DNA of 64,000 bases, taken from a virus (lineage: Duplodnaviria > Caudoviricetes). Within the stretch, counting starts at the first letter, position 1. Each line of letters starts with the position of its first letter. The translations under genes were made by a program, and so were the position numbers. This document shows positions 3 to 51,116 of the stretch, one piece after another. Where the stretch lies: IMG/VR virus record IMGVR_UViG_3300028025_000089; one strand, 5' to 3'. The notes under the pieces are model-generated. The model did no database searches and was not told the DNA's origin. It saw only the letters and a program-made list of their open reading frames with translations.

Positions 3-413
3 CAAAGTGTAACATGCGGGTTATATCCTTGGACGACAGATCCAAACACAACATCATTTGGTGTGGTATTAAACCAAACACTCCAAGACTATTTTACATC
101 ACAAGGTATTAACCCTGGTCAGTGTCAATTGAATTCAACAGTTTCAAATTGGTTTGTTGATATAAGAGTTAATGGATTACTTATTACTCAATATGGTTTC
201 TTTACAGGAATCGGAACTTCAGGTTATCCATCAAGTTCACAATGGTTACAAGGATTGCAAGAAGCTTTGGATGGTTTACTAACAAGTGGTTATAGTTATA
301 ATATTGATGAAGATACAAATGAATTAGTGGTCTTTAATAATAATTGTTTACCAAACTTTGATGACTTTGAATTGAATGTTGGAATAAACTTTGAAACTTA
401 CTGTAACGCATAA
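3..413 (+). CDS. C-terminal part of a putative virion structural protein, truncated at window edge
   Basis: The frame stays open upstream of the track start at 63 back to the window edge. Composition matches the downstream structural-type genes, and the stop overlaps the next ATG. Confidence 0.6.
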   Translation, partial: QSVTCGLYPWTTDPNTTSFGVVLNQTLQDYFTSQGINPGQCQLNSTVSNWFVDIRVNGLLITQYGFFTGIGTSGYPSSSQWLQGLQEALDGLLTSGYSYNIDEDTNELVVFNNNCLPNFDDFELNVGINFETYCNA

Positions 414-2599
414 TGAGTATAACAATTTATAATTATAGTGTAACTGGTGATTGTAGTAATACGGGGTCAGGAGCATTTTCATTTGACATTACAGGAACAA
501 CACCTCCTTTTGCCGTAACGTGTATTAGTTCAGGTTGTAGTTTACCAACCTCAGCAACCACAACTTCTTATGGTGTTTCAGGAATTACCGCTGACACATA
601 TTTTTTACAAGTCGTTGATGGATCGTCAAATAATTACGTTCAGGCTGTTTATATATCATCAGGAACAACCGCAACGATTGATTCTGAAAATACAACGTGT
701 GGGTTGAGTAATGGATCTATTACAGGATATACTTCAGGTGTTTATAATATTGCAACATTTAGTTTGTATGATGGACTTAACAATTTAGTCACCTCATCAC
801 AAGTTTCGAATAATTATTATAATTTCACATCTCTTTCTGCTGGAACATATTATATAGTTGCTGATGATGGTGGTGGTTGCACAGGAATCACAGCCTCAGT
901 AATTGTTACACCATCAACAGGTTTTACTTTTGGTGGTTATGTTGTTGATGACGCAAGTTGTAACGGAGTTGGAAGTGGAAAAATATTTCTTACAGGTTTA
1001 ACATTACCTTCATCCGCATATACAATAAATTGGTCACCAAATGTTAATGGACAAACAGGAACAACTGTTACAGGTTTAACGGGGGGAACTTATATAGTCA
1101 CAGTAACAGATCCTATTAATTGTTCTAATACACAATCATTTAATGTTCAAGCCGTTGATCCTTTGGGTTCAGGTGGTTTTATTACTATATCACAACCAAC
1201 TTGTTTTGCTAATGACGGTGAAGTTGAATTTATTGTGACAGGAGGAACTCCTCCATATTTCTTTAGCGGTTCGTCAGGTCAAGTTGATGTTACGTTTGCA
1301 TCATCAGTAACATTTACTGGTTTATCATCGGGTATTTATTCGTTTTTAGTTACAGATGCAGGACTATGCACCATATACGATTCGGTTTCAATGTTGACAC
1401 CAAACTCATTCACTACGGTTGCGGTTAACACAACACCATCTTTTTGTTCTCAAAACTCGGGATCTATTCAGGTTATAGTTGATAATGGATTGAGCACAGA
1501 ACCAAGTTTATTAATTTCAATATCAGGAACAAGCGGAACACAACAAGTTGGAAGTTTAGGAAACCCAACTCAAACATTCAACGGACTTCCAAATGGGACT
1601 TATTTAATCACCGTTCAATCAACAAGTTGCACTTATACCGCAACAACTAATATAACTTCTGTTGATTTATTTACGGTTACAGCATCAACAACAGGAACAA
1701 CTTGTGGTGGTAATAATGGTATTTTAGATGTTGTAGTTTCAACAGGAGGAACATTACCATACATATTTACTCTTACGGGACCAACTTATAGTCCTGTAAC
1801 CACAACAACTTTTTTATCTACATTTACAAATCTTAAATATGGTAATTATACCTTGACAGTTCAAGATTCAGGATCACCGAGTTGTAGTCAAACCTATAAT
1901 GTTTATATTGATGATAGTCAAAATGTATTTTTTAATTTAATACCATCACAACCAATTACAGGAAATGATGGGGCAATTACCACATATATTCTATCGGGAG
2001 TTCCGACCTTCAATCTAACATGGAGTAGTAATGTTAATGGTCAAACAGGATCAACTGTGACAGGACTAACGGCAGGGACTTATACTTTGACGGTTGTTGA
2101 TAGTGAAGATTGTTCCTTGACAAAATCAATTACATTAACGGGAACTAAAAAATATAGTGATTACAGATACTATAATATTTGTGATAATACATTTGCAGAC
2201 ACGGGAACGGTAACCAAAAGAAGTATGAGAGCAATGTATTTGGAAGGTTTTTCTGATCTTACAAGTGGGGATACAAATTGTATTATAAACGAAGCAACGT
2301 TTTCGATATATGCACAAGTTGGATCACAATCCGCTCAAACACAATTCTACACTTCAAGTGGATCAACCGATTACCCAACAGATGTTTTGTGGGCTCAAAC
2401 GATTGTTGAAACCTTAGATTCATTTGTAGGTATTTCAGGAACTACCGTCGACATAGTATCAAATAGAATAACAATAACCACAACATGTGAAGACATACCA
2501 AAAGGGTGTGAAATAGTCCCTTTGAATCCATTACAAGATAATGAGATTATTGTTAAGTTAGTTATTGATTATGATATATCTTGTGTAAGCTGTAGTTAA
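413..2599 (+). CDS. SprB-repeat-like, Cys/Thr/Gly-rich putative virion structural protein
   Basis: 728 aa with repeated GGTPPY/GLTAGTY.VTVTD..GC motifs typical of SprB beta-sandwich repeats; no signal peptide. Confidence 0.65.
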   Translation: MSITIYNYSVTGDCSNTGSGAFSFDITGTTPPFAVTCISSGCSLPTSATTTSYGVSGITADTYFLQVVDGSSNNYVQAVYISSGTTATIDSENTTCGLSNGSITGYTSGVYNIATFSLYDGLNNLVTSSQVSNNYYNFTSLSAGTYYIVADDGGGCTGITASVIVTPSTGFTFGGYVVDDASCNGVGSGKIFLTGLTLPSSAYTINWSPNVNGQTGTTVTGLTGGTYIVTVTDPINCSNTQSFNVQAVDPLGSGGFITISQPTCFANDGEVEFIVTGGTPPYFFSGSSGQVDVTFASSVTFTGLSSGIYSFLVTDAGLCTIYDSVSMLTPNSFTTVAVNTTPSFCSQNSGSIQVIVDNGLSTEPSLLISISGTSGTQQVGSLGNPTQTFNGLPNGTYLITVQSTSCTYTATTNITSVDLFTVTASTTGTTCGGNNGILDVVVSTGGTLPYIFTLTGPTYSPVTTTTFLSTFTNLKYGNYTLTVQDSGSPSCSQTYNVYIDDSQNVFFNLIPSQPITGNDGAITTYILSGVPTFNLTWSSNVNGQTGSTVTGLTAGTYTLTVVDSEDCSLTKSITLTGTKKYSDYRYYNICDNTFADTGTVTKRSMRAMYLEGFSDLTSGDTNCIINEATFSIYAQVGSQSAQTQFYTSSGSTDYPTDVLWAQTIVETLDSFVGISGTTVDIVSNRITITTTCEDIPKGCEIVPLNPLQDNEIIVKLVIDYDISCVSCS

Positions 2600-2602
2600 T
2601 TT

Positions 2603-2827
2603 ATGTCAAACCAAATAACAATAACTTCTGTTACAGGATTAACAACCCCATTTAGTGGATACTGTTGTGACGTATATGGAAATCAATGTTCATTTGTTGG
2701 AGTGATTAGTAGTTTACCAACAACAATAACTTTACCAAATCAGTTTAACACCGCTCCTGCGATAGGTTTAAAACTTAATGATGGTGCTGGATGTGAAACT
2801 TTAGAAACAATTTACTGTTCTTCATAA
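2603..2827 (+). CDS. Small Cys-containing structural-type protein, paralog of 10692..10910
   Basis: Shares the pattern QITI.S..GL.P...Y.CD.....C..V..I...P....LP..........LK..D..GC...ETL with 10692..10910. Confidence 0.6.
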   Translation: MSNQITITSVTGLTTPFSGYCCDVYGNQCSFVGVISSLPTTITLPNQFNTAPAIGLKLNDGAGCETLETIYCSS

Positions 2828-2861
2828 TTCACTTTACATATTTTTCCTTTAATTTTTCTTT

Positions 2862-3842
2862 ATGGAAAAAATTTTATTTGTCACCGCACAACCTGACGTG
2901 CCATATTTTATTTGGCAAATCAAACTATACGTTCATAATTTCATAGAGAAAGGAATTAACCCAAATCAAATCCACGTTATTTTTAGTTTACAAAATGAAA
3001 ATAATGAACCGTCAAGAGAATCTTTACAGTTGAAAGATCTTGGGATTAATGTTCATCACTTTGTTGATGAAAGGGTTAAAAAACATTATATACCATCAAT
3101 AAAACCATTTTTAATTTCAAAGTGGATTCAAAAAAATCCTAAATACGGTGAGTTATTTTTTCTTCACGATTCAGATATTATTTTTAACGAACTACCGAGT
3201 TTTGATCGGTTATTGAATGATGAGGTTTGTTACATGTCAGATACGATTGGATATATTGGATATAACTACATTATGGATTGTTGTAAAAGATATGAAAGTC
3301 AAAACCCAACTTCTGAGAAAGGACAACTCATTTCTGAAATGGCAAATGTTGTTGGAGTTGATGTTGACACAATTAAACAAAATCAAAAAAATTCAGGAGG
3401 AGGTCAATACCTTTTTAAAAACACAAATTGTGAATTATGGGATAAAATGTATAAAGACTCAATAAAATTATACGATCAAATGTTAGATTATCAAAAACGT
3501 TTTCCGATCAATCCAGGTCAAATACAATTTTGGACCGCAGAAATGTGGGCAGTGTTGTGGAATCTTTGGTTATATGAATACGAAACAAAAATAATTTCAG
3601 ATCTTGATTTTTCATGGGCTACTGACACCATTGAGATTTATAATTCAAAAAACATATTACACATGGCAGGTGTCACAGATGATCTAAAAACTACAAAATT
3701 CTATAAAGGTGATTATATTAATATTGACCCCATTTTGAAATTAAAGGAGGATGAAAACTTTTTTAATTACATAGATAAAAACAGTTCGACAATTAAATAC
3801 ATCGAAAACATGAAATCATATATAAAAAAATACGAAAATTGA
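2862..3842 (+). CDS. Putative protein O-glycosyltransferase resembling GT96 SERGT / GT95 HPAT
   Basis: Motifs YFIWQ...HNF, SIKPFLISKW, HDSDII (DxD) and WTAEMW parallel the plant SERGT1/HPAT motifs YFDWQ, NKP...HWL, DADMI and WISEMY, recalled from memory. Confidence 0.55.
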   Translation: MEKILFVTAQPDVPYFIWQIKLYVHNFIEKGINPNQIHVIFSLQNENNEPSRESLQLKDLGINVHHFVDERVKKHYIPSIKPFLISKWIQKNPKYGELFFLHDSDIIFNELPSFDRLLNDEVCYMSDTIGYIGYNYIMDCCKRYESQNPTSEKGQLISEMANVVGVDVDTIKQNQKNSGGGQYLFKNTNCELWDKMYKDSIKLYDQMLDYQKRFPINPGQIQFWTAEMWAVLWNLWLYEYETKIISDLDFSWATDTIEIYNSKNILHMAGVTDDLKTTKFYKGDYINIDPILKLKEDENFFNYIDKNSSTIKYIENMKSYIKKYEN

Positions 3843-3858
3843 TTATTTATAATATTAT

Positions 3859-5931
3859 ATGATTGAAAACTGTTATATACTATATTCTTGTGATGGAGGT
3901 TACCAACCGATCATTTCTAATTACAGTGGATTAAGCGCTTATTCTGAAAGTTACGTATCCATTAACATTATTGATTTGGGTGAAACTCCTGACACTTGTT
4001 TTTATGTTTTAAGTTTAGGTGAAATAGAATGTGATATAACCTATGATATTGACATAAACACAGGAACAACATGTTCTTGTCAGTGTTATTGTTATTTTAT
4101 AAGAAGTTTAGAAACAAATGTTGATGTGACTTATGTAGATTGTAATGATCTTATTGTTGTTGAAACATTACAAGAAGGACAAACATATAATATTTGTAGT
4201 AAAGTATTTCCTCAATTTGATGGAGAATCTCAAATACCAATTAAAATAACGGATATTTGTCAAAACAACCAATGTCCTCCAACAATACCAACAGTAAAAC
4301 CACCTAACGAATGTGATGTTATTACAATATTTCCAATGGACGTTGAGTGTATTGTTCAAAACCCATCCAACGACAGATCTTTTGATGGGGCTGCGACATT
4401 AGCAATTACAGGAGGAACACCACCTTATACCATATTTTGGGAAATCGGAAGTTTTGCTCCAGCCCTTAATAATTTAGGTGTTGGTGAGTATTCAGCAACT
4501 GTGACTGATTACTATGGTGATTTTACTGCGAACACCACTTGTGTTTTAACGGCAGAAACATTAACCATATCTGGTATGTGTTTTGTTATGACGGGAATTA
4601 CAGGTGAAGTTTTAACTTATATTTCAGCCGAAAGTCTTGGACTTAAAAACGGAAAACCATATTATGAAATACAATATTTGGGTGAAACGTATGGTTATGT
4701 ATTTTGGAATACAGAATATGAAACTTGGTATTTTTGTCAAACATTAGATTGTCAAAATATAAGCCCATATAACACTTATACAGGAACAACTTATTATCCT
4801 TCAGGTGCTACAGGTGATTGGGTTATTGAATCTGATACACAATATCAAATAATTGAATCTTATGTTGGTCCATGTCAAATACCTGCAATTGTTAAAGGAG
4901 ACACCAATCTTTGTGTTACGTTAATTATAAATACAGGAAATTCAGACTCACCAACAGATACTTTAAATATTGGATTAGACCCAAGTAATGAAATTAATGG
5001 ACAACCAAGTTGGTCATCATCAACGGGACAATATGTGATTTATTGGAATACAGGATCAACACCTAATCAATGGGTTATGACGGGATATACTAATCCATAT
5101 GTTACATTAACAAACAATGATCCATCAGATCCACCTATTAGTAATTGGGTTGTTAATGGTGAACCTGAAGTTTTAGAAATGTTTGTTTTGACTGGTGATT
5201 GTTCCACTGGTTATACAATAAATGTCAATGCTGCAATAAATGATGCCTTATGTGAAGAAACGGGAAGTATAACACTAACCGCAAGTGGAGGTATTGCACC
5301 ATACGAATATTCTGTTGATGGGATTAATTTTCAACCATCCCCAATATTCAACGGACTAACACCGGGGTCTTATATAGTTTATGCGAAAGATTCATTAAAT
5401 AATATTGGGTTATATTCACCTGTTGTGATAAATAATACACCACCTGTATCATATTCAGTCGTGTTGAATGTAAACTATAGCACGGGATTATTTACTATAA
5501 CGGCACCTACTTTACCTGCAGGTGTTACAATAGATCTTAATTTGGTGATGACTTCAACGTTTAGTTATTACCCAACAACACTTTCACCACAACCAACTTA
5601 TAATAATTTTACAACAATTATTGGAACAGGACTTATGACTTTGACAAATACTATGTTAAATATAACTCCGTTGACAGGTCCTTGTGTTAGAACAGGTTCT
5701 ATTGGAGTTGCACAAACAACAAATACTTATACAAATACAATTACTTTGGTGAGTAATCAAGTTGTTAGTGGAACAACCACAAATAACATTATCAATGACC
5801 CAACTGGAAATTGTAAAAATGCTATTGGTTCATATAACTTAACAATGACAAACCCTACGATAAATAATTGTCAGTGTTGTTCGGTATTTCTTCTTAACCC
5901 AAGATTAAACCCAGCACCTCCAATTACATAA
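3859..5931 (+). CDS. SprB-repeat-containing putative virion structural protein
   Basis: Contains GGTPPY and GGIAPYEYS SprB-like repeats, is Cys-rich, and has TATTTAT upstream. Confidence 0.6.
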   Translation: MIENCYILYSCDGGYQPIISNYSGLSAYSESYVSINIIDLGETPDTCFYVLSLGEIECDITYDIDINTGTTCSCQCYCYFIRSLETNVDVTYVDCNDLIVVETLQEGQTYNICSKVFPQFDGESQIPIKITDICQNNQCPPTIPTVKPPNECDVITIFPMDVECIVQNPSNDRSFDGAATLAITGGTPPYTIFWEIGSFAPALNNLGVGEYSATVTDYYGDFTANTTCVLTAETLTISGMCFVMTGITGEVLTYISAESLGLKNGKPYYEIQYLGETYGYVFWNTEYETWYFCQTLDCQNISPYNTYTGTTYYPSGATGDWVIESDTQYQIIESYVGPCQIPAIVKGDTNLCVTLIINTGNSDSPTDTLNIGLDPSNEINGQPSWSSSTGQYVIYWNTGSTPNQWVMTGYTNPYVTLTNNDPSDPPISNWVVNGEPEVLEMFVLTGDCSTGYTINVNAAINDALCEETGSITLTASGGIAPYEYSVDGINFQPSPIFNGLTPGSYIVYAKDSLNNIGLYSPVVINNTPPVSYSVVLNVNYSTGLFTITAPTLPAGVTIDLNLVMTSTFSYYPTTLSPQPTYNNFTTIIGTGLMTLTNTMLNITPLTGPCVRTGSIGVAQTTNTYTNTITLVSNQVVSGTTTNNIINDPTGNCKNAIGSYNLTMTNPTINNCQCCSVFLLNPRLNPAPPIT

Positions 5932-5958
5932 AATTAAAAGAATAATATTTATTCAATA

Positions 5959-8478
5959 ATGGCCTACATAATTAAAAATACATCAGGTTTGGTTAACACC
6001 CGAGTTACTGACACGGGAAGACAAAGATTGTCTGAAGGTAGATTCAATATCACATATTTTGCTATTGGTGATAGTGAAATATCTTATAATCAATTACCCA
6101 ACACTTATAACCAATCAAACACCGTTGTATTGGAACCTCAATTTAATGCTCAAAATAGTTCAGGCGTTCCTGAATCAAATAGACAATATATTAAATATCC
6201 TTATTTGGTTGATGAAGGTCAAACAAACCTTTATGGTATTCCATTTATGGATTCGCAAATTGAATCTGTTTATAATAGAGCTGCAATGAGAGGATTTTTT
6301 ACAGGAAACACAACAGCGTCAACTGTAAATTGGAAGGCTCTTGTTAATAATTCATATGTTGTGACACCAAATTATGTTGTTAATATGTCAACGTTAAATG
6401 GGTCAAATGAAATCAACGTATATCGATTAGATTGTAATAGTCAAAATAATAATACACCACAAGTTGGTGATTTTATTACAATATATTATGATGGGTTTGC
6501 AAAAAATGATTGTTCTTGTTCTAATTTCCCGACACCAACACCATCGGCATCGGTAGGACAAACACCAACACCTACACCAACTCCATCGGCAACATTATCA
6601 AACCCTTGTGCGTCACCAACACCGACACCAAGCCCAACTCAAACACCTTGTATATCACCTACACCAAGTGCTCAATGTCCTTTACCACCACCACCTGATT
6701 GTTTGAAAAATGTTAATTCTTGTTTTTCAATATTAACATATAGAATCGTTGCGGTATGTAATGATAAATTAACATTAGATAGACCAACACCCGACTTTAC
6801 CAATCTTTCAAGTGATTGTATTGCAAGAACATTAATATATCCACCACAAATGGTTCCTTTGTATGATAGTTTTACACCTGAACCGCATTGGGCTCAAAGT
6901 GTTATTGATTTTGAATCAGTTTGTGATACGGATCAATTTGATGTTAAAATTTGGAACATGAATATTCCGTGGACTGAAAGTCCGGCAGGTTTATTGCCAT
7001 CACAATACCAAGACTATACCAAATTTGGATCAATTAATTATATCGGTCAAAAAGAATACTTTGGTTATACAACAAGTGCTCAAACATCTACAGACGATGT
7101 TTATTATTATAACTCTTTTGGTGAAAAACAAGTTGTGACACCGCAAGATCAAAAGGCTATTGCAATTATTCATTATACTAATCAAACAATAGATTTCTTT
7201 TATGGTGAAAAATTTGCTTTAGAACCATATGACACACAAAACCCTGAAAACACACAAGGTCAAGCAAGAAACTTTAAGTTACACATGCCAACAATAATGT
7301 GGCATAAAAACCCTGAATGTTGTTTTGGTCAAACATTCTATGTTGATCCTCCAGGGTTCGAAGGTAAAAACTTGTTTACAGTTCAATATACAAAATCAAA
7401 TATTTCGTCCAACATGAATAAACCTGGATTGAGATATTATAATTTATGGGACACATTTGCACAACCAAATGGACTTCCAAGTAGAATTGGAAAAGTATAT
7501 CCTGATTCTAAAATGATAATAATAGATGACGAAGAATTGGTTGCTGCACTTTCATATAAGTCAAATCGAAATTGGACTTTACCGGCACCTCAAGTTTCGT
7601 TATTAACACCAAACACTTGTGGTGTTTCTAATACTACAGGAGTTTTAACTGGTGGCAGTGAAACAATGTGGGTGACTTATAGATTAACAAACACTAATTA
7701 CTTTACTAATTCATTACATTGTAATTACTATGTGAACGTAGTTGGAACTGAAAATGTTTGTTCACCTGAAACACCAAAAAATGTTGCGGTTAGATTCGGA
7801 GGAGATTTCCCTTGTTTAGTTCAACCAGGTTTTACACCAACAACCACAACCACAACAATTCCTTTTACAACAACCACAACTACAAGTCCATTAACAACAA
7901 CTACAACTACAAGTCCATTAATTACAACCACAACAACTATTTGTCCAACTTGTGTTGTTCCTGCAGGTTTTTACGCGACTGAATTCCAAGTATTAGCTCA
8001 AAGAGTTCCTACGGGACAAAGACCAACCCCTGAAAGTTGGAAGATGATTGATTTTACACAACAAATAAGTAGTTTATTTATTAATGGATATGTAACACAA
8101 GAATCATTAACGGCAACAACATTTACAATTACTGCTGAAAATTATGACAGCGCTCCATTCTACAATCTAAATGATTATGTTACACTTGTTCCTAATGGTG
8201 CGACAGGTCAACAATTAAACTTTGGTGATGAATATTATTTCTATGGAAATTTAGAGACAGATATTCAAGCAACGATCTACGAAATGAAATATAAGATAAA
8301 CTTGAATTCTTCTGAATTTTTGGTGTCTCAAAACCCAACATGGACAAAAGGGACTCAATCTTATGTTACGGAAATTGCGTTATTAGATGAAAATGAAGAT
8401 ATTCTTGTTATGTCAAAATTACAATCACCTGTTTTACGACAAGGAATACAACAATACGTGGTAAAATTAGATTTCTAA
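5959..8478 (+). CDS. Large virion structural protein (tail/baseplate-associated type) with Pro/Thr-rich insertions
   Basis: N-terminal TDTGR...ITYFAIGDSE and C-terminal TEIALLDENEDILVMSKL...VKLDF motifs resemble those of phage tail/baseplate proteins. Contains PTPTP and poly-Thr linkers. Confidence 0.6.
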   Translation: MAYIIKNTSGLVNTRVTDTGRQRLSEGRFNITYFAIGDSEISYNQLPNTYNQSNTVVLEPQFNAQNSSGVPESNRQYIKYPYLVDEGQTNLYGIPFMDSQIESVYNRAAMRGFFTGNTTASTVNWKALVNNSYVVTPNYVVNMSTLNGSNEINVYRLDCNSQNNNTPQVGDFITIYYDGFAKNDCSCSNFPTPTPSASVGQTPTPTPTPSATLSNPCASPTPTPSPTQTPCISPTPSAQCPLPPPPDCLKNVNSCFSILTYRIVAVCNDKLTLDRPTPDFTNLSSDCIARTLIYPPQMVPLYDSFTPEPHWAQSVIDFESVCDTDQFDVKIWNMNIPWTESPAGLLPSQYQDYTKFGSINYIGQKEYFGYTTSAQTSTDDVYYYNSFGEKQVVTPQDQKAIAIIHYTNQTIDFFYGEKFALEPYDTQNPENTQGQARNFKLHMPTIMWHKNPECCFGQTFYVDPPGFEGKNLFTVQYTKSNISSNMNKPGLRYYNLWDTFAQPNGLPSRIGKVYPDSKMIIIDDEELVAALSYKSNRNWTLPAPQVSLLTPNTCGVSNTTGVLTGGSETMWVTYRLTNTNYFTNSLHCNYYVNVVGTENVCSPETPKNVAVRFGGDFPCLVQPGFTPTTTTTTIPFTTTTTTSPLTTTTTTSPLITTTTTICPTCVVPAGFYATEFQVLAQRVPTGQRPTPESWKMIDFTQQISSLFINGYVTQESLTATTFTITAENYDSAPFYNLNDYVTLVPNGATGQQLNFGDEYYFYGNLETDIQATIYEMKYKINLNSSEFLVSQNPTWTKGTQSYVTEIALLDENEDILVMSKLQSPVLRQGIQQYVVKLDF

Positions 8479-8535
8479 CCAAAAACTTTAATTTTAATTC
8501 TTTTCACTTATAATAATTTAATACAAACAATTTTT

Positions 8536-9144
8536 ATGGCAAAAAATCTGAAAAACACACCAAAAGTCTTGGGACTTGATATATCAACCAAAACAATTGG
8601 TTGGGCGTTATTCGACATCCAAACTCAAGAGTTATTAGAACTTACCCATGTTTCACCAAGACCTAAAATGGATAAAGATGACGATGATAAATTAAAAGAG
8701 TTATTACTTAAATCAGAAATTTTTTCAGAGAAGTTAAAACAATATAAAAATCTTGGAATTGTAAGAATCGTAATTGAAGAGCCTTTATTAAATTCTAACA
8801 ATGTATATACAATTCAAACCCTATTAAGATTTAATAGTTTTGTTTTCAAAGAGATATACAACATATTTGGAATTGTTCCCGAATTTATTTCAACATACAA
8901 TTCAAGAAAGTTTGCATTTCCCGAATTAGTCCAAGAAAACGATAAAAAGAAACACGTTCTATTTGGAGGTCTTCCAAAAGATGTGGATAAGAAAATGATA
9001 ATTTGGGAAAAGGTTGCAAAAAGAGAACCTCAAATCAAATGGTTATATACCAAAAATAATACACTTAAAAAGGAAAACTTTGACCAAACTGATGCTTATA
9101 CTTGTGCGTTAGGTTTTATGAGGTCTAAAGGTATTTGGGAATAA
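8536..9144 (+). CDS. RuvC-like Holliday junction resolvase
   Basis: Motifs VLGLDISTKTIGWA, VIEEP and C-terminal DQTDAY give an RNase H-fold acidic tetrad. Confidence 0.8.
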   Translation: MAKNLKNTPKVLGLDISTKTIGWALFDIQTQELLELTHVSPRPKMDKDDDDKLKELLLKSEIFSEKLKQYKNLGIVRIVIEEPLLNSNNVYTIQTLLRFNSFVFKEIYNIFGIVPEFISTYNSRKFAFPELVQENDKKKHVLFGGLPKDVDKKMIIWEKVAKREPQIKWLYTKNNTLKKENFDQTDAYTCALGFMRSKGIWE

Positions 9145-9169
9145 TATTGTATAATATATTGATAATTTG

Positions 9170-9202
9170 AAATATCGTCTTTTTAGACGATATTTTTTTT
9201 TA
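9170..9202. terminator. Bidirectional intrinsic terminator between convergent genes
   Basis: Stem aaatatcgtct/agacgatattt followed by a T-run. Confidence 0.75.
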
Positions 9203-10690
9203 ACAAGAAAATCCTGTATTTGTTATTAGAGTGTTTTGAGGGTTGTTGGATACTGGTGTTGTTGATGAACACAAATAAATTGAAGTATTTGGATTCATAG
9301 ATATTGAAGAAGGACCATTTTCACAACTAAAATAAGATATTGATATTTTAGATGGACTGTCATTAACAATCGAATATTCAAACTGAACACATGGTGTAGG
9401 ACTTGGAGTCGGTGTTGGTGTTTGAGTTGGAGTTTGTGTTGGAGTTTGTGTTAATTCAGGAACGCAGTTTAAACAAGCGCCATCTGTAGTTGATCCTATT
9501 TCTGTTAATAACTGAATTGTATCCACACCACTTATATTTTCAAATAACCCATCATAAATAACACAATATCCTTGTCCGTTAATTATTGCGTTATATACAT
9601 AACCTTCTTTTGGTGATGTAGTTCCTGAAACCAAAACCAAATCTGATGTAAAATATTGAATACCTGTAAAGCAATCTCTGAATTTTTTACTATTTGCACA
9701 TTGTATAATTTCAGAAAATGTATTAAATATAACTTCACCCGAAAAATTGCAAGGTCTATCAACTTGTGGTGTTGGAGTTGGTGTCGGTGTAAACGAAGGC
9801 GTTGGAGTTGGTGATATACCTAATTTTGAAACTACCATTGATACACCACCACAAATTGCCGAACTTGTCGGTGTCATTGTTGGTGTGGGGGTTGGTGTTT
9901 TTGGTGGTGTTGTAGAAGGTGTTGGTGGTATATAACAATCAAAAACCGCTTCCAAATCTAACGTAGAACAAGGATTAATTGTTGTTGTAGTTGTTGTGCA
10001 TGGACCAAAATAAAGAACACTATCATCTAAATCAGGACAAGAGGATGCGCTACCATATGGTCCGAATTGATCACAAGGATCACCAAGATTTTGAGCTAAA
10101 CACCATCTTGTTTCACCTGTAGAGTAATAAATCACAAAACTTGTAGATTCACCTGTATAATATGATTGACCATCAAAAGTTCCTGCAATTTCATATGTGT
10201 CGTCGTATGTTGTATCATTTTGAATACAAAATGTTCCTGTGCAAGTGCAGGCAGATATACCTAATATTTCACCAGCACTATCAACATCATAAACATCAAC
10301 ACCGTCAGAATAGTAAGAAATTAATGCTGTAGTTGTGCAAGCAGAATCTGTGTATACAATAGACCCAATGTTTAAATCAGAACCATACAAGATATAATCT
10401 AATGGTGATAAACAAGAAAGTTCAGGATCTGAAGCCGATGAAAAATTTCCTAAAAAATTACAAGAACAACCTGAAACTCCGGTAATTTCTCCCGAACCAT
10501 TTGTTGAATATAAATTAGACCCGTTACTCAAATATATTGATGCTAAAGGCATCGTGCAACCTGAATCAATATACATCTCTTCACCAATTACCAAACTATC
10601 TCCGTATACCGTAGTTGTAAGTGCAGATAAACACAAATCCAAACTAGCGGATGTGTCAAGAGCAAATAAACCTAAATCATTACAAGCCAT
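9200..10690 (-). CDS. Cys-rich, Pro/Thr-repeat putative virion structural protein
   Basis: 496 aa with repeated GEI.G.S.C.C modules and several PTPTP tracts. Confidence 0.65.
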   Translation of the reverse strand: MACNDLGLFALDTSASLDLCLSALTTTVYGDSLVIGEEMYIDSGCTMPLASIYLSNGSNLYSTNGSGEITGVSGCSCNFLGNFSSASDPELSCLSPLDYILYGSDLNIGSIVYTDSACTTTALISYYSDGVDVYDVDSAGEILGISACTCTGTFCIQNDTTYDDTYEIAGTFDGQSYYTGESTSFVIYYSTGETRWCLAQNLGDPCDQFGPYGSASSCPDLDDSVLYFGPCTTTTTTINPCSTLDLEAVFDCYIPPTPSTTPPKTPTPTPTMTPTSSAICGGVSMVVSKLGISPTPTPSFTPTPTPTPQVDRPCNFSGEVIFNTFSEIIQCANSKKFRDCFTGIQYFTSDLVLVSGTTSPKEGYVYNAIINGQGYCVIYDGLFENISGVDTIQLLTEIGSTTDGACLNCVPELTQTPTQTPTQTPTPTPSPTPCVQFEYSIVNDSPSKISISYFSCENGPSSISMNPNTSIYLCSSTTPVSNNPQNTLITNTGFSC

Positions 10691-50644: not shown

Positions 50645-50678
50645 ATTTTTAATGGTATTTATAATAAAAATATCATTT

Positions 50679-51116
50679 ATGAAAAAAGATCTTTTCAAAA
50701 TCAACGAAGAAGACAGAAATAGAATTTTGGAAATGCATATAACGGCAACCAAAAATAAATATTTGTTTGAAGATGACACAACAACCACAACAACAACTAC
50801 AGTGGCCGCCGCACCTACAACACCAACACCCGCAGCAAGATACACAACAGCAACTTGTGCAGGAAAAAAACCTAACTGCCAAGAAAAAGTTTTAAAAATT
50901 CAAATTAGAATGAATGATGAATGTCCTGCCGAAGTCTTGACCACAAAACTTGTTGAAGATGGGGCTTGGGGAACAAAAAGTTCGACAGCGTGGGAAGCTT
51001 GTAAAGGTAAATTAAAACCAACAAAACAAGCACCAACAAATCCTACTACCGATCAAAAACCGGCGGTAGACAATACGACAAGTCAAGATACAATGAATCA
51101 AATGTTTAATAGTTAA
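50679..51116 (+). CDS. Leader-family protein with a Thr-rich linker and a PG-binding-like motif
   Basis: MKKDLFKINEEDRNRILEMH...YLFE leader; LVEDGAWGTKS; start at 50679 after TATTTAT. Confidence 0.65.
   Translation: MKKDLFKINEEDRNRILEMHITATKNKYLFEDDTTTTTTTTVAAAPTTPTPAARYTTATCAGKKPNCQEKVLKIQIRMNDECPAEVLTTKLVEDGAWGTKSSTAWEACKGKLKPTKQAPTNPTTDQKPAVDNTTSQDTMNQMFNS

Follow-up and report, generated by a model that had tools for sequence, protein, structure and literature searches.

The window analysed here is a 64,000-nucleotide stretch of a virus (Duplodnaviria; Caudoviricetes; IMG/VR record IMGVR_UViG_3300028025_000089), and the element in question is the glycosyltransferase gene at positions 2862-3842. 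Its product, hereafter the enzyme, has a GT-A fold with a conserved set of a DxD motif, a histidine and a lysine, is homologous to the HPAT proteins of plants and green algae (glycosyltransferase family GT95), and belongs to a family whose genes in phages are coupled to poly-Thr tracts on neighbouring proteins. It was judged probable that the enzyme is a cytoplasmic, metal-dependent, retaining GT-A enzyme of GT8-like type that O-glycosylates Thr-rich tracts of the phage's own virion proteins. A phage enzyme acting on its own virion proteins had been proposed in a first-pass annotation; the proposal gains computational support from the co-variation of the enzyme with capsid and tail poly-Thr in unrelated phages.

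Fold, motifs and family of the enzyme

The open reading frame (ORF) was matched to phrog_4417 (E = 3.7e-68, residues 6-319 against profile positions 3-290 of 293), a family annotated as 'unknown function'; no Pfam match was found at E values up to 1. An exhaustive HMMER search yielded 833 cluster representatives of the enzyme family at E ≤1e-3, and relatives 72-99% identical to the enzyme were present on metagenomic contigs of up to 311 kb. Conservation was scored on an alignment of 52 relatives (29-53% identity), columns that were invariant or at least 90% conserved being counted. AlphaFold2 run on the same alignment produced a very confident model (predicted local distance difference test, pLDDT, 97.5; predicted template modelling score, pTM, 0.94), which shows one Rossmann-like alpha/beta/alpha domain that superposes on solved GT-A enzymes. 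No membrane segment or N-terminal hydrophobic stretch was visible in the enzyme, which begins MEKILFVTAQPD and runs straight into the first strand.

By the first-pass annotation, best structural matches outside the GT-A fold would have spoken against its reading. Foldseek against the PDB returned solely GT-A matches (WbbM, glycogenin, UGGT, blood-group GTA/GTB, XXYLT1, XXT1 and LARGE1, E ~1e-6), mostly retaining enzymes with a DxD motif, several with protein or protein-bound-glycan acceptors. When PDB sequences were searched with the single sequence and with the profile, nothing rose above noise. Sequence membership of GT8 (Pfam PF01501) was not found, identity to glycogenin and LgtC being 8-10%; the likeness to GT8 is limited to fold and motif logic.

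Four motifs had been read from the sequence at first pass, and all are present in the order given then, each on columns conserved in the 52-sequence alignment: PYFIWQIKLYVHNF (residues 14-27), YIPSIKPFLISKW (76-88), HDSD (102-105) and QFWTAEMW (222-229). The invariant or at least 90% conserved columns in them are Y15, W18, Q19, Y76, D103, D105, W224, M228 and W229. HDSD directly follows strand 98-101, the fourth beta strand of the model, which is the canonical place of a DxD motif. A fifth conserved block contains H267 and K282, whose positions match those of the third metal ligand and the diphosphate-binding lysine of GT8 enzymes; by this analogy they are candidates for the same two roles. 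Coordinates in the window are as follows.

2862-3842, plus strand: glycosyltransferase ORF, ATG start, 326 residues; predicted soluble GT-A enzyme of the phrog_4417 family, distant HPAT/GT95 relative
2904-2942, plus strand: motif 1, YFIWQIKLYVHNF; Y15, W18 and Q19 conserved; follows the first beta strand
3087-3125, plus strand: motif 2, YIPSIKPFLISKW; Y76 invariant
3165-3176, plus strand: motif 3, HDSD, the DxD metal/nucleotide-sugar motif; D105 invariant, D103 at least 90% conserved
3525-3548, plus strand: motif 4, QFWTAEMW; W224, M228 and W229 conserved
3660-3707, plus strand: fifth block, H267-x-x-G270...K282; H267, G270 and K282 invariant

All five blocks align to conserved blocks of the HPAT proteins (phage family first, HPAT proteins second).

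Motif 1: YfxWQ / YMQWQ, with W16 and Q17 invariant in HPAT proteins
Motif 2: YiPSIrP / YpiYNKP, with N74, K75 and P76 invariant in HPAT proteins
Motif 3: FYhDsDiiF / LLlDPDCVF, with D96-P-D98 invariant in HPAT proteins
Motif 4: IQxWtAdMWA / pxWESDMfaY, the W-E-S-D-M of HPAT proteins (W191, E192, D194, M195)
Fifth block: IxHnAGV...K / IIHYCQ...K, with H232 and K248 invariant in HPAT proteins

The relationship was followed at profile level. When the phage-family alignment was compared by hhalign with 24 proteins of the HPAT family PF23452, a probability of 70.3 and E = 4e-5 were obtained over 266 columns, that is, over the whole catalytic domain, with the motifs superposed. A bridge was provided by an HPAT protein from a Myxococcales metagenome-assembled genome (MAG), which scores 34.4 bits against PF23452 (cut-off 23.9) and carries a C-terminal PqqD domain; against this PF23452+PqqD protein the probability rose to 88.8 (E = 2.5e-6). 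Three of the 52 relatives matched PF23452 directly and weakly (best E 1.3e-4), and the ESM Atlas clusters of enzyme relatives carry HPAT on ~10% of members. Among ESM Atlas shape neighbours, the closest annotated non-viral ones were a Chlorophyta cluster (HPAT on 99% of members, plus ShK; template modelling score, TM, 0.72, ~280 residues) and bacterial 'PqqD family' clusters (HPAT 55%; TM 0.72 over ~280 residues). The PF23452 hidden Markov model (HMM) found no match in five carrier phage genomes, nor in 401 genomes of the phylum of G002. By sequence criteria the enzyme is thus placed as a distant relative in the HPAT superfamily, outside PF23452 by the Pfam threshold. Of the likeness to plant O-glycosyltransferases suggested at first pass, the GT95/HPAT homology stands at the level of profile and model, and formal HPAT membership does not.

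Genomic context of the enzyme family

Homologs of the enzyme were found by tblastn in 77 phage records. Eleven cultured phages were inspected; in 8 of them the gene lies directly 3' of a major capsid or tail gene.

Directly after the major tail protein: phiFL1A, SA2, Lactococcus 1706, phiCTP1
Directly after the major capsid protein: Enterococcus 4995_1, Planchet, VPE25, R3.3

The upstream major tail or capsid protein has a C-terminal poly-Thr run in 6 of the 11 (for example ...GTTTTTSTTTTTTSSTTTTTTTQASSK, ...GVTTTTTTTTTTHHD and ...GTTTTTTKPTTTTTTTQA). Two further cultured phages, SA2 and Iacchus, have a Thr-rich ORF beside the enzyme gene; in Lactobacillus phage Iacchus a 128-residue protein, 55% Ser/Thr, is encoded upstream of it.

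Both of these loci have features of their own. The major tail protein of Staphylococcus phage SA2 (L006:4111-4924) ends in DDSTTTTTTTTP, and an overlapping poly-Thr ORF of 87 residues (56% Ser/Thr) begins inside the 3' end of the tail-tube gene; this arrangement hints at programmed frameshifting, by which some tail-tube subunits would receive a longer poly-Thr tail. In Iacchus, a myovirus of the Herelleviridae (L007:3949-7663), two small Thr-rich proteins with TTTTTSTTTVKP repeats lie upstream of the enzyme and a glycerophosphodiester phosphodiesterase downstream, and the enzyme gene is not adjacent to capsid or tail-tube genes.

The co-occurrence survey suggested by the first-pass annotation revealed a strong coupling. 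With poly-Thr defined as at least 7 Thr in a 10-residue window, a tract was found in the ORF upstream of the enzyme at 26 of 58 loci outside the class with a LanC-like neighbour (described below), as against 28 of 847 other ORFs (3.3%) at the same loci (Fisher p ~1e-19). In the LanC class the count was 0 of 29. Stand-alone enzymes were grouped by single-linkage clustering at 50% identity; poly-Thr was found directly upstream in 7 of 11 clusters and within two genes in 10 of 12. The proteins that carry the tracts are unrelated to one another: tail tubes, capsids, small Thr-rich proteins and proteins of 500-1300 residues, the last found in a Chryseobacterium phage as well as on contigs with the labels Bacteroidota, Cytophagales or Gammaproteobacteria.

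The tracts are absent from orthologous proteins of four relatives that have no enzyme. Enterococcus phage phiFL1A, in which the enzyme is present (profile search, E 2.9e-100), has poly-Thr tails on two proteins, the capsid protein gp45 and the tail tube gp50. In the Streptococcus phages phiGBSVK-C and Javan505 and the Lactobacillus phages Bassarid and phiJL-1, the orthologs of these proteins (50-60% identity) end without a Thr run, and the same search found no enzyme homolog in those four genomes. The pattern repeats within the genus Coetzeevirus: R3.3 carries the enzyme along with a capsid protein that has a tail, and both are missing from Bassarid and phiJL-1.

Bacterial relatives were found in a different setting. 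PqqD is the peptide-binding element of pathways for ribosomally synthesized and post-translationally modified peptides (RiPPs), and HPAT relatives fused to PqqD number more than 100, mostly unnamed or labelled 'PqqD family protein'. Among 80 genomic loci with a homolog, a LanC-like gene lies immediately downstream in 29, and in one (L076) it is fused. These LanC-class homologs are 451-829 residues long (a Glyco_transf_7C domain was present in one scanned example), and at least 12 of the 29 loci also encode a C39-peptidase/VKOR/thioredoxin protein. By record titles, the LanC-class loci (L027:6007-12184, L032:6004-8186 and 27 more) lie on Bacteroidota chromosomes. Still other relatives are fused with PF11397 (a GT60-type polypeptide GlcNAc-transferase), O-FucT, GT2, GT6 or methyltransferase domains. 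The PqqD fusions, the LanC and C39 neighbours and the GT60 and O-FucT fusions together point to a peptide substrate as a trait of the family, and the context of the bacterial cousins suggests peptide glycosylation in RiPP pathways.

Several of these bacterial arrangements were recorded as observations in their own right. The LanC-class genera include Mucilaginibacter, Chitinophaga, Pedobacter, Sphingobacterium and Elizabethkingia, often with thioredoxin-like proteins nearby. The loci look like an undescribed cluster for a glycosylated, disulfide-rich RiPP; upstream of the Mucilaginibacter cluster nothing convincing was found as a precursor peptide. In a Myxococcales MAG (L093:1009-3567, minus strand) an HPAT+PqqD fusion adjoins a 464-residue protein with a prolyl-hydroxylase-type 2-oxoglutarate-Fe(II) oxygenase domain (PF13640), a pair that mirrors the plant order of proline hydroxylation followed by glycosylation and may represent a bacterial pathway to peptides glycosylated on hydroxyproline (Hyp). 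Giant multi-transferase fusions that include the enzyme family were also seen (proteins P0155, P0147, P0168 and P0226); one, of 1369 residues, joins O-FucT, a GT60-type GlcNAc-transferase, an F5/8 type C lectin-like domain and the enzyme family, and others combine the family with GT6, GT2 or a methyltransferase. Such fusions would be single-chain assembly lines for protein O-glycans.

Gene neighbourhood and candidate acceptors in the window

The enzyme gene lies on the same strand as its two neighbours, 35 bases downstream of a 74-residue ORF and 17 bases upstream of a 690-residue one, in a window with a G+C content of 27-39%. No hairpin comparable to that at 9169-9196 was found between 413 and 9144. 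Since this is the first convincing terminator after position 413, the enzyme gene is probably co-transcribed with the neighbouring genes. The terminator stands just past the RuvC-like gene and looks bidirectional. The surrounding features are given below.

413-2599, plus strand: SprB/Ig-like repeat protein, 728 residues (Pfam Y_Y_Y, SprB, Ig_J); putative fibre or adhesin
2603-2827, plus strand: Cys-rich ORF, 74 residues, directly upstream of the enzyme gene; slot variable between relatives
3859-5931, plus strand: SprB-repeat protein, 690 residues, directly downstream of the enzyme gene (SprB, E 1.1e-11; weak match to phrog_26672 'virion structural protein', E 5.6e-6)
5959-8478, plus strand: conserved protein, 839 residues, with two low-complexity inserts (a PT tract and four T5-T6 runs); best candidate acceptor
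6523-6669, plus strand: insert 1 of the 839-residue protein, a Cys-flanked (PT/TP)n tract
7831-7941, plus strand: insert 2 of the 839-residue protein, TTTTTT-x-P repeats ending at CPxC
8536-9144: RuvC-like Holliday junction resolvase (phrog_159, E 1.1e-7), closing the fibre-type block
9169-9196, plus strand: strong terminator-like hairpin (12-bp stem and T run), closing the co-directional block 413-9144
9200-10690, minus strand: second candidate acceptor, a protein of 496 residues that contains a T6 run and 12 TP/PT triplet sites
50652-51116: ORF of 154 residues with a T8 run followed by AAAPTTPTPAA, far from the enzyme gene; possible acceptor

The first-pass annotation had placed the gene between two structural-type genes and had described the neighbouring virion-type proteins as rich in PTPTP and poly-Thr. 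The SprB and Ig-like repeats and one weak virion PHROG match bear out a structural role in part. The tracts are real and are absent from both immediate flanks; they lie in the 839- and 496-residue proteins, both within 7 kb of the enzyme. TP/PT tracts or 10-residue stretches with at least 7 Thr occur in only 3 of the 92 non-nested ORFs of the window (the 839-, 496- and 154-residue proteins), and the likeliest acceptors here would be the 839-residue (5959-8478) and 496-residue (9200-10690) proteins.

The arrangement is conserved among relatives. The order in four related contigs is a protein of ~995 residues, SprB protein, small or collagen-like fibre gene, enzyme, SprB protein, T/PT-rich protein and RuvC-like gene. 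Orthologs of the 728-residue protein were found in L004, L005, L100 and L101. The slot upstream of the enzyme is filled by ORFs of 71-72 residues in L100 and L101 and by collagen-like tail-fibre genes in L004 and L005 (PHROG tail-fibre matches down to E 3.5e-21). Synteny of the enzyme with the T/PT-rich 839-residue protein is kept in L004, L100 and L101, down to 67% identity, and a counterpart of the 496-residue protein (426-526 residues) occupies the same position in those three. Across 25 orthologs of the 839-residue protein (67-94% identity) the positions of the inserts are fixed, and their length and composition vary (poly-Thr, TP repeats). The inserts are Cys-flanked and range from ~10 to more than 200 residues, with an extra Cys-rich module inside insert 2 in some orthologs.

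Searches outward from the window gave little. Nothing was matched when its first 20 kb were compared by megablast with the phage collection, or when the 839- and 690-residue neighbours were compared by tblastn with phage records. The enzyme gene is missing from the nearest virus record (G001), and an ESM-Atlas feature search with the 839-residue protein returned unnamed viral clusters only.

Proposed action, alternatives and comparison with known systems

According to the proposed mechanism, the enzyme would be made late, as a soluble protein, together with the neighbouring fibre-type genes, and would bind a UDP-sugar through the DxD motif and a divalent metal ion. The sugar would then be passed to Thr hydroxyls in disordered poly-Thr and TP/PT tracts in the host cytoplasm, before or during assembly. 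A retaining mechanism, suggested by the structural neighbours, would give an alpha linkage, and the particle would come to bear a mucin-like glycan brush, which might serve shielding, stiffening or adhesion.

Several points weigh against this reading. The poly-Thr tracts of the window form internal loops in proteins encoded two and four genes from the enzyme, and the product of the adjacent gene has no C-terminal tail; that the 839-residue, 496-residue and flanking proteins belong to the virion is itself deduced, and the AlphaFold2 model of the 839-residue protein is of low confidence (pLDDT 44). Elsewhere VPE25, Planchet and several contigs have the enzyme without poly-Thr on the adjacent gene. 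The link to HPAT is statistically modest (probability 70-89%), the enzyme does not rise above the PF23452 gathering threshold (23.9 bits), and the best solved structural matches (GT8) include lipooligosaccharide-acting enzymes. Throughout the family, the assignment of acceptors is correlative.

Four alternatives were considered. The one that survives best, though it was thought rather unlikely, is that another phage enzyme adds the first sugar to Thr and the enzyme extends the glycan with a second, alpha-linked sugar, as AgtA does on Skp1 and GlyE on PsrP. No GT2, GT4-type or GT60 family was found in five small enzyme-bearing phages, in a search whose controls were positive for GT2 and GT4-type; in these poly-Thr carriers the enzyme must therefore start the chain or be served by host enzymes, and it is likely, on gene content, to be the initiating transferase there. 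The nearest sequence relatives, HPAT proteins and PqqD fusions, moreover act on or bind peptides directly. Action on a polymer of the host envelope (teichoic acid, capsule, O-antigen or lipooligosaccharide) during infection or lysogeny, for instance to block superinfection, with the poly-Thr link incidental, was considered improbable. The gene stands in the late structural operon beside capsid and tail genes, outside lysogeny modules; the enzyme is soluble, has no membrane segment and is found in virulent and jumbo phages too; and where it is present or absent, orthologous structural proteins have or lack poly-Thr tails accordingly.

Glycosylation of hypermodified phage DNA bases, in the manner of the T4 glucosyltransferases, was regarded as very improbable. 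Large phages often glycosylate their DNA, and this is the default reading for jumbo-phage glycosyltransferases in review text cited in PMC12619734. Against it, small temperate siphophages carry homologs, which lie in the structural module and are coupled to poly-Thr tails; no DNA glycosyltransferase was among the top structural matches; and bacterial relatives are found in peptide-modification clusters. The least credible alternative, that of a catalytically idle structural or assembly component retaining the GT-A fold, could draw on the label 'major tail protein' given to the homolog gp49 in the phiFL2B record (GQ478085.1), but the true tail-tube homolog is the preceding gp48, so the label is a mis-annotation shifted by one gene, and the DxD, His and Lys positions are kept in relatives that are divergent and number in the hundreds, an argument that catalysis has been retained.

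Beyond the window, it may be, at somewhat less than an even chance, that a mobile cassette of an HPAT-like glycosyltransferase and a poly-Thr/TP tract grafted on an adjacent structural protein is a widespread, undescribed route to mucin-like coats for heads, tails and fibres in phages of Bacillota and Bacteroidota, and that the enzyme superfamily links phage virions, bacterial RiPPs and plant extensins. In the literature searched, phage virion glycosylation was demonstrated in mycobacteriophages only, where it affects antibody recognition. If the cassette is real, virion glycosylation would extend to hundreds of enterococcal, staphylococcal, lactobacillus, lactococcal, clostridial, Bacteroidota and freshwater jumbo phages, including phages of therapy and dairy research, with a bearing on the immunogenicity and mucus adherence of therapeutic phages. 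A large PHROG of 'unknown function' would receive a function, and the odd poly-Thr tails of capsid and tail proteins would be explained. A prokaryotic or viral origin would be implied for the plant GT95 enzymes, and soluble bacterial-type relatives of the plant extensin glycosyltransferases would become available for work on structure and mechanism; the searches made here returned no solved structure of the plant enzymes. The enzyme together with a poly-Thr tract amounts to a predictive sequence rule, and several carriers are cultured, which makes the hypothesis directly testable.

Among known systems, the glycocin-type RiPP systems resemble the bacterial cousins of the enzyme, which have a PqqD fusion or LanC-like and C39-peptidase neighbours. 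The known glycocin enzymes SunS and GccA are GT2, a different family, and the enzyme of the window has no PqqD domain. With GT8 (glycogenin, LgtC, GlyE) and AgtA (GT77), at 8-13% identity and Foldseek TM of 0.4-0.5, the fold class is shared but the family is not.

Homology of the catalytic domain was seen with HPAT1-3 (GT95, PF23452) of plants and green algae, at profile level and in five blocks (YxxWQ, YxPxxKP, DxD, WxxxM and H...K). HPAT1-3 directly O-glycosylate low-complexity Pro/Ser-rich peptides and extensins (PMC5371791). They are type II membrane proteins of the Golgi, whereas the phage enzyme is predicted to be soluble and cytoplasmic. No prolyl hydroxylase was noted among the genes adjacent to the enzyme in the window, and since the tracts that co-vary with the enzyme are poly-Thr, the acceptor is probably Thr rather than Hyp; UDP-L-arabinofuranose is unlikely as the donor in these hosts. 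The second comparison of the first-pass annotation, the peptidyl-serine alpha-galactosyltransferase SGT1 (GT96), is grouped with HPAT in InterPro. SGT1 glycosylates extensin peptides directly, as a retaining O-glycosyltransferase (PMC5371791), and a deep-learning classification predicted a novel fold for GT96 (PMC8476585), in contrast to the clear GT-A fold of the phage enzyme.

The closest parallel in function is offered by mycobacteriophages. In summaries of the work of Freeman et al. 2023 (PMC12363180, PMC12619734), glycosyltransferases of phages Che8, Corndog and Myrna are described as glycosylating the C-termini of capsid and tail-tube subunits. Two marks of a system of this type are seen with the present family: a phage glycosyltransferase encoded in or next to the structural genes, and low-complexity Ser/Thr tails on capsid or tail subunits that co-occur with it; in phiFL1A the poly-Thr tails are on the same two proteins. 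The enzyme family differs: no Mycobacterium phage was among the 77 phage records with a homolog. The hosts differ as well, being Bacillota and Bacteroidota here, and the gene adjoins the presumed acceptor. For the window itself, large fibre-type proteins carry the candidate tracts as internal loops. No link of the enzyme family, HPAT-like enzymes or poly-Thr tails to phage glycosylation was found in the literature searched. Glycosylation of capsid and tail-tube C-termini by phages is thus known from mycobacteriophages, and what is new is the enzyme family and its coupling to poly-Thr.

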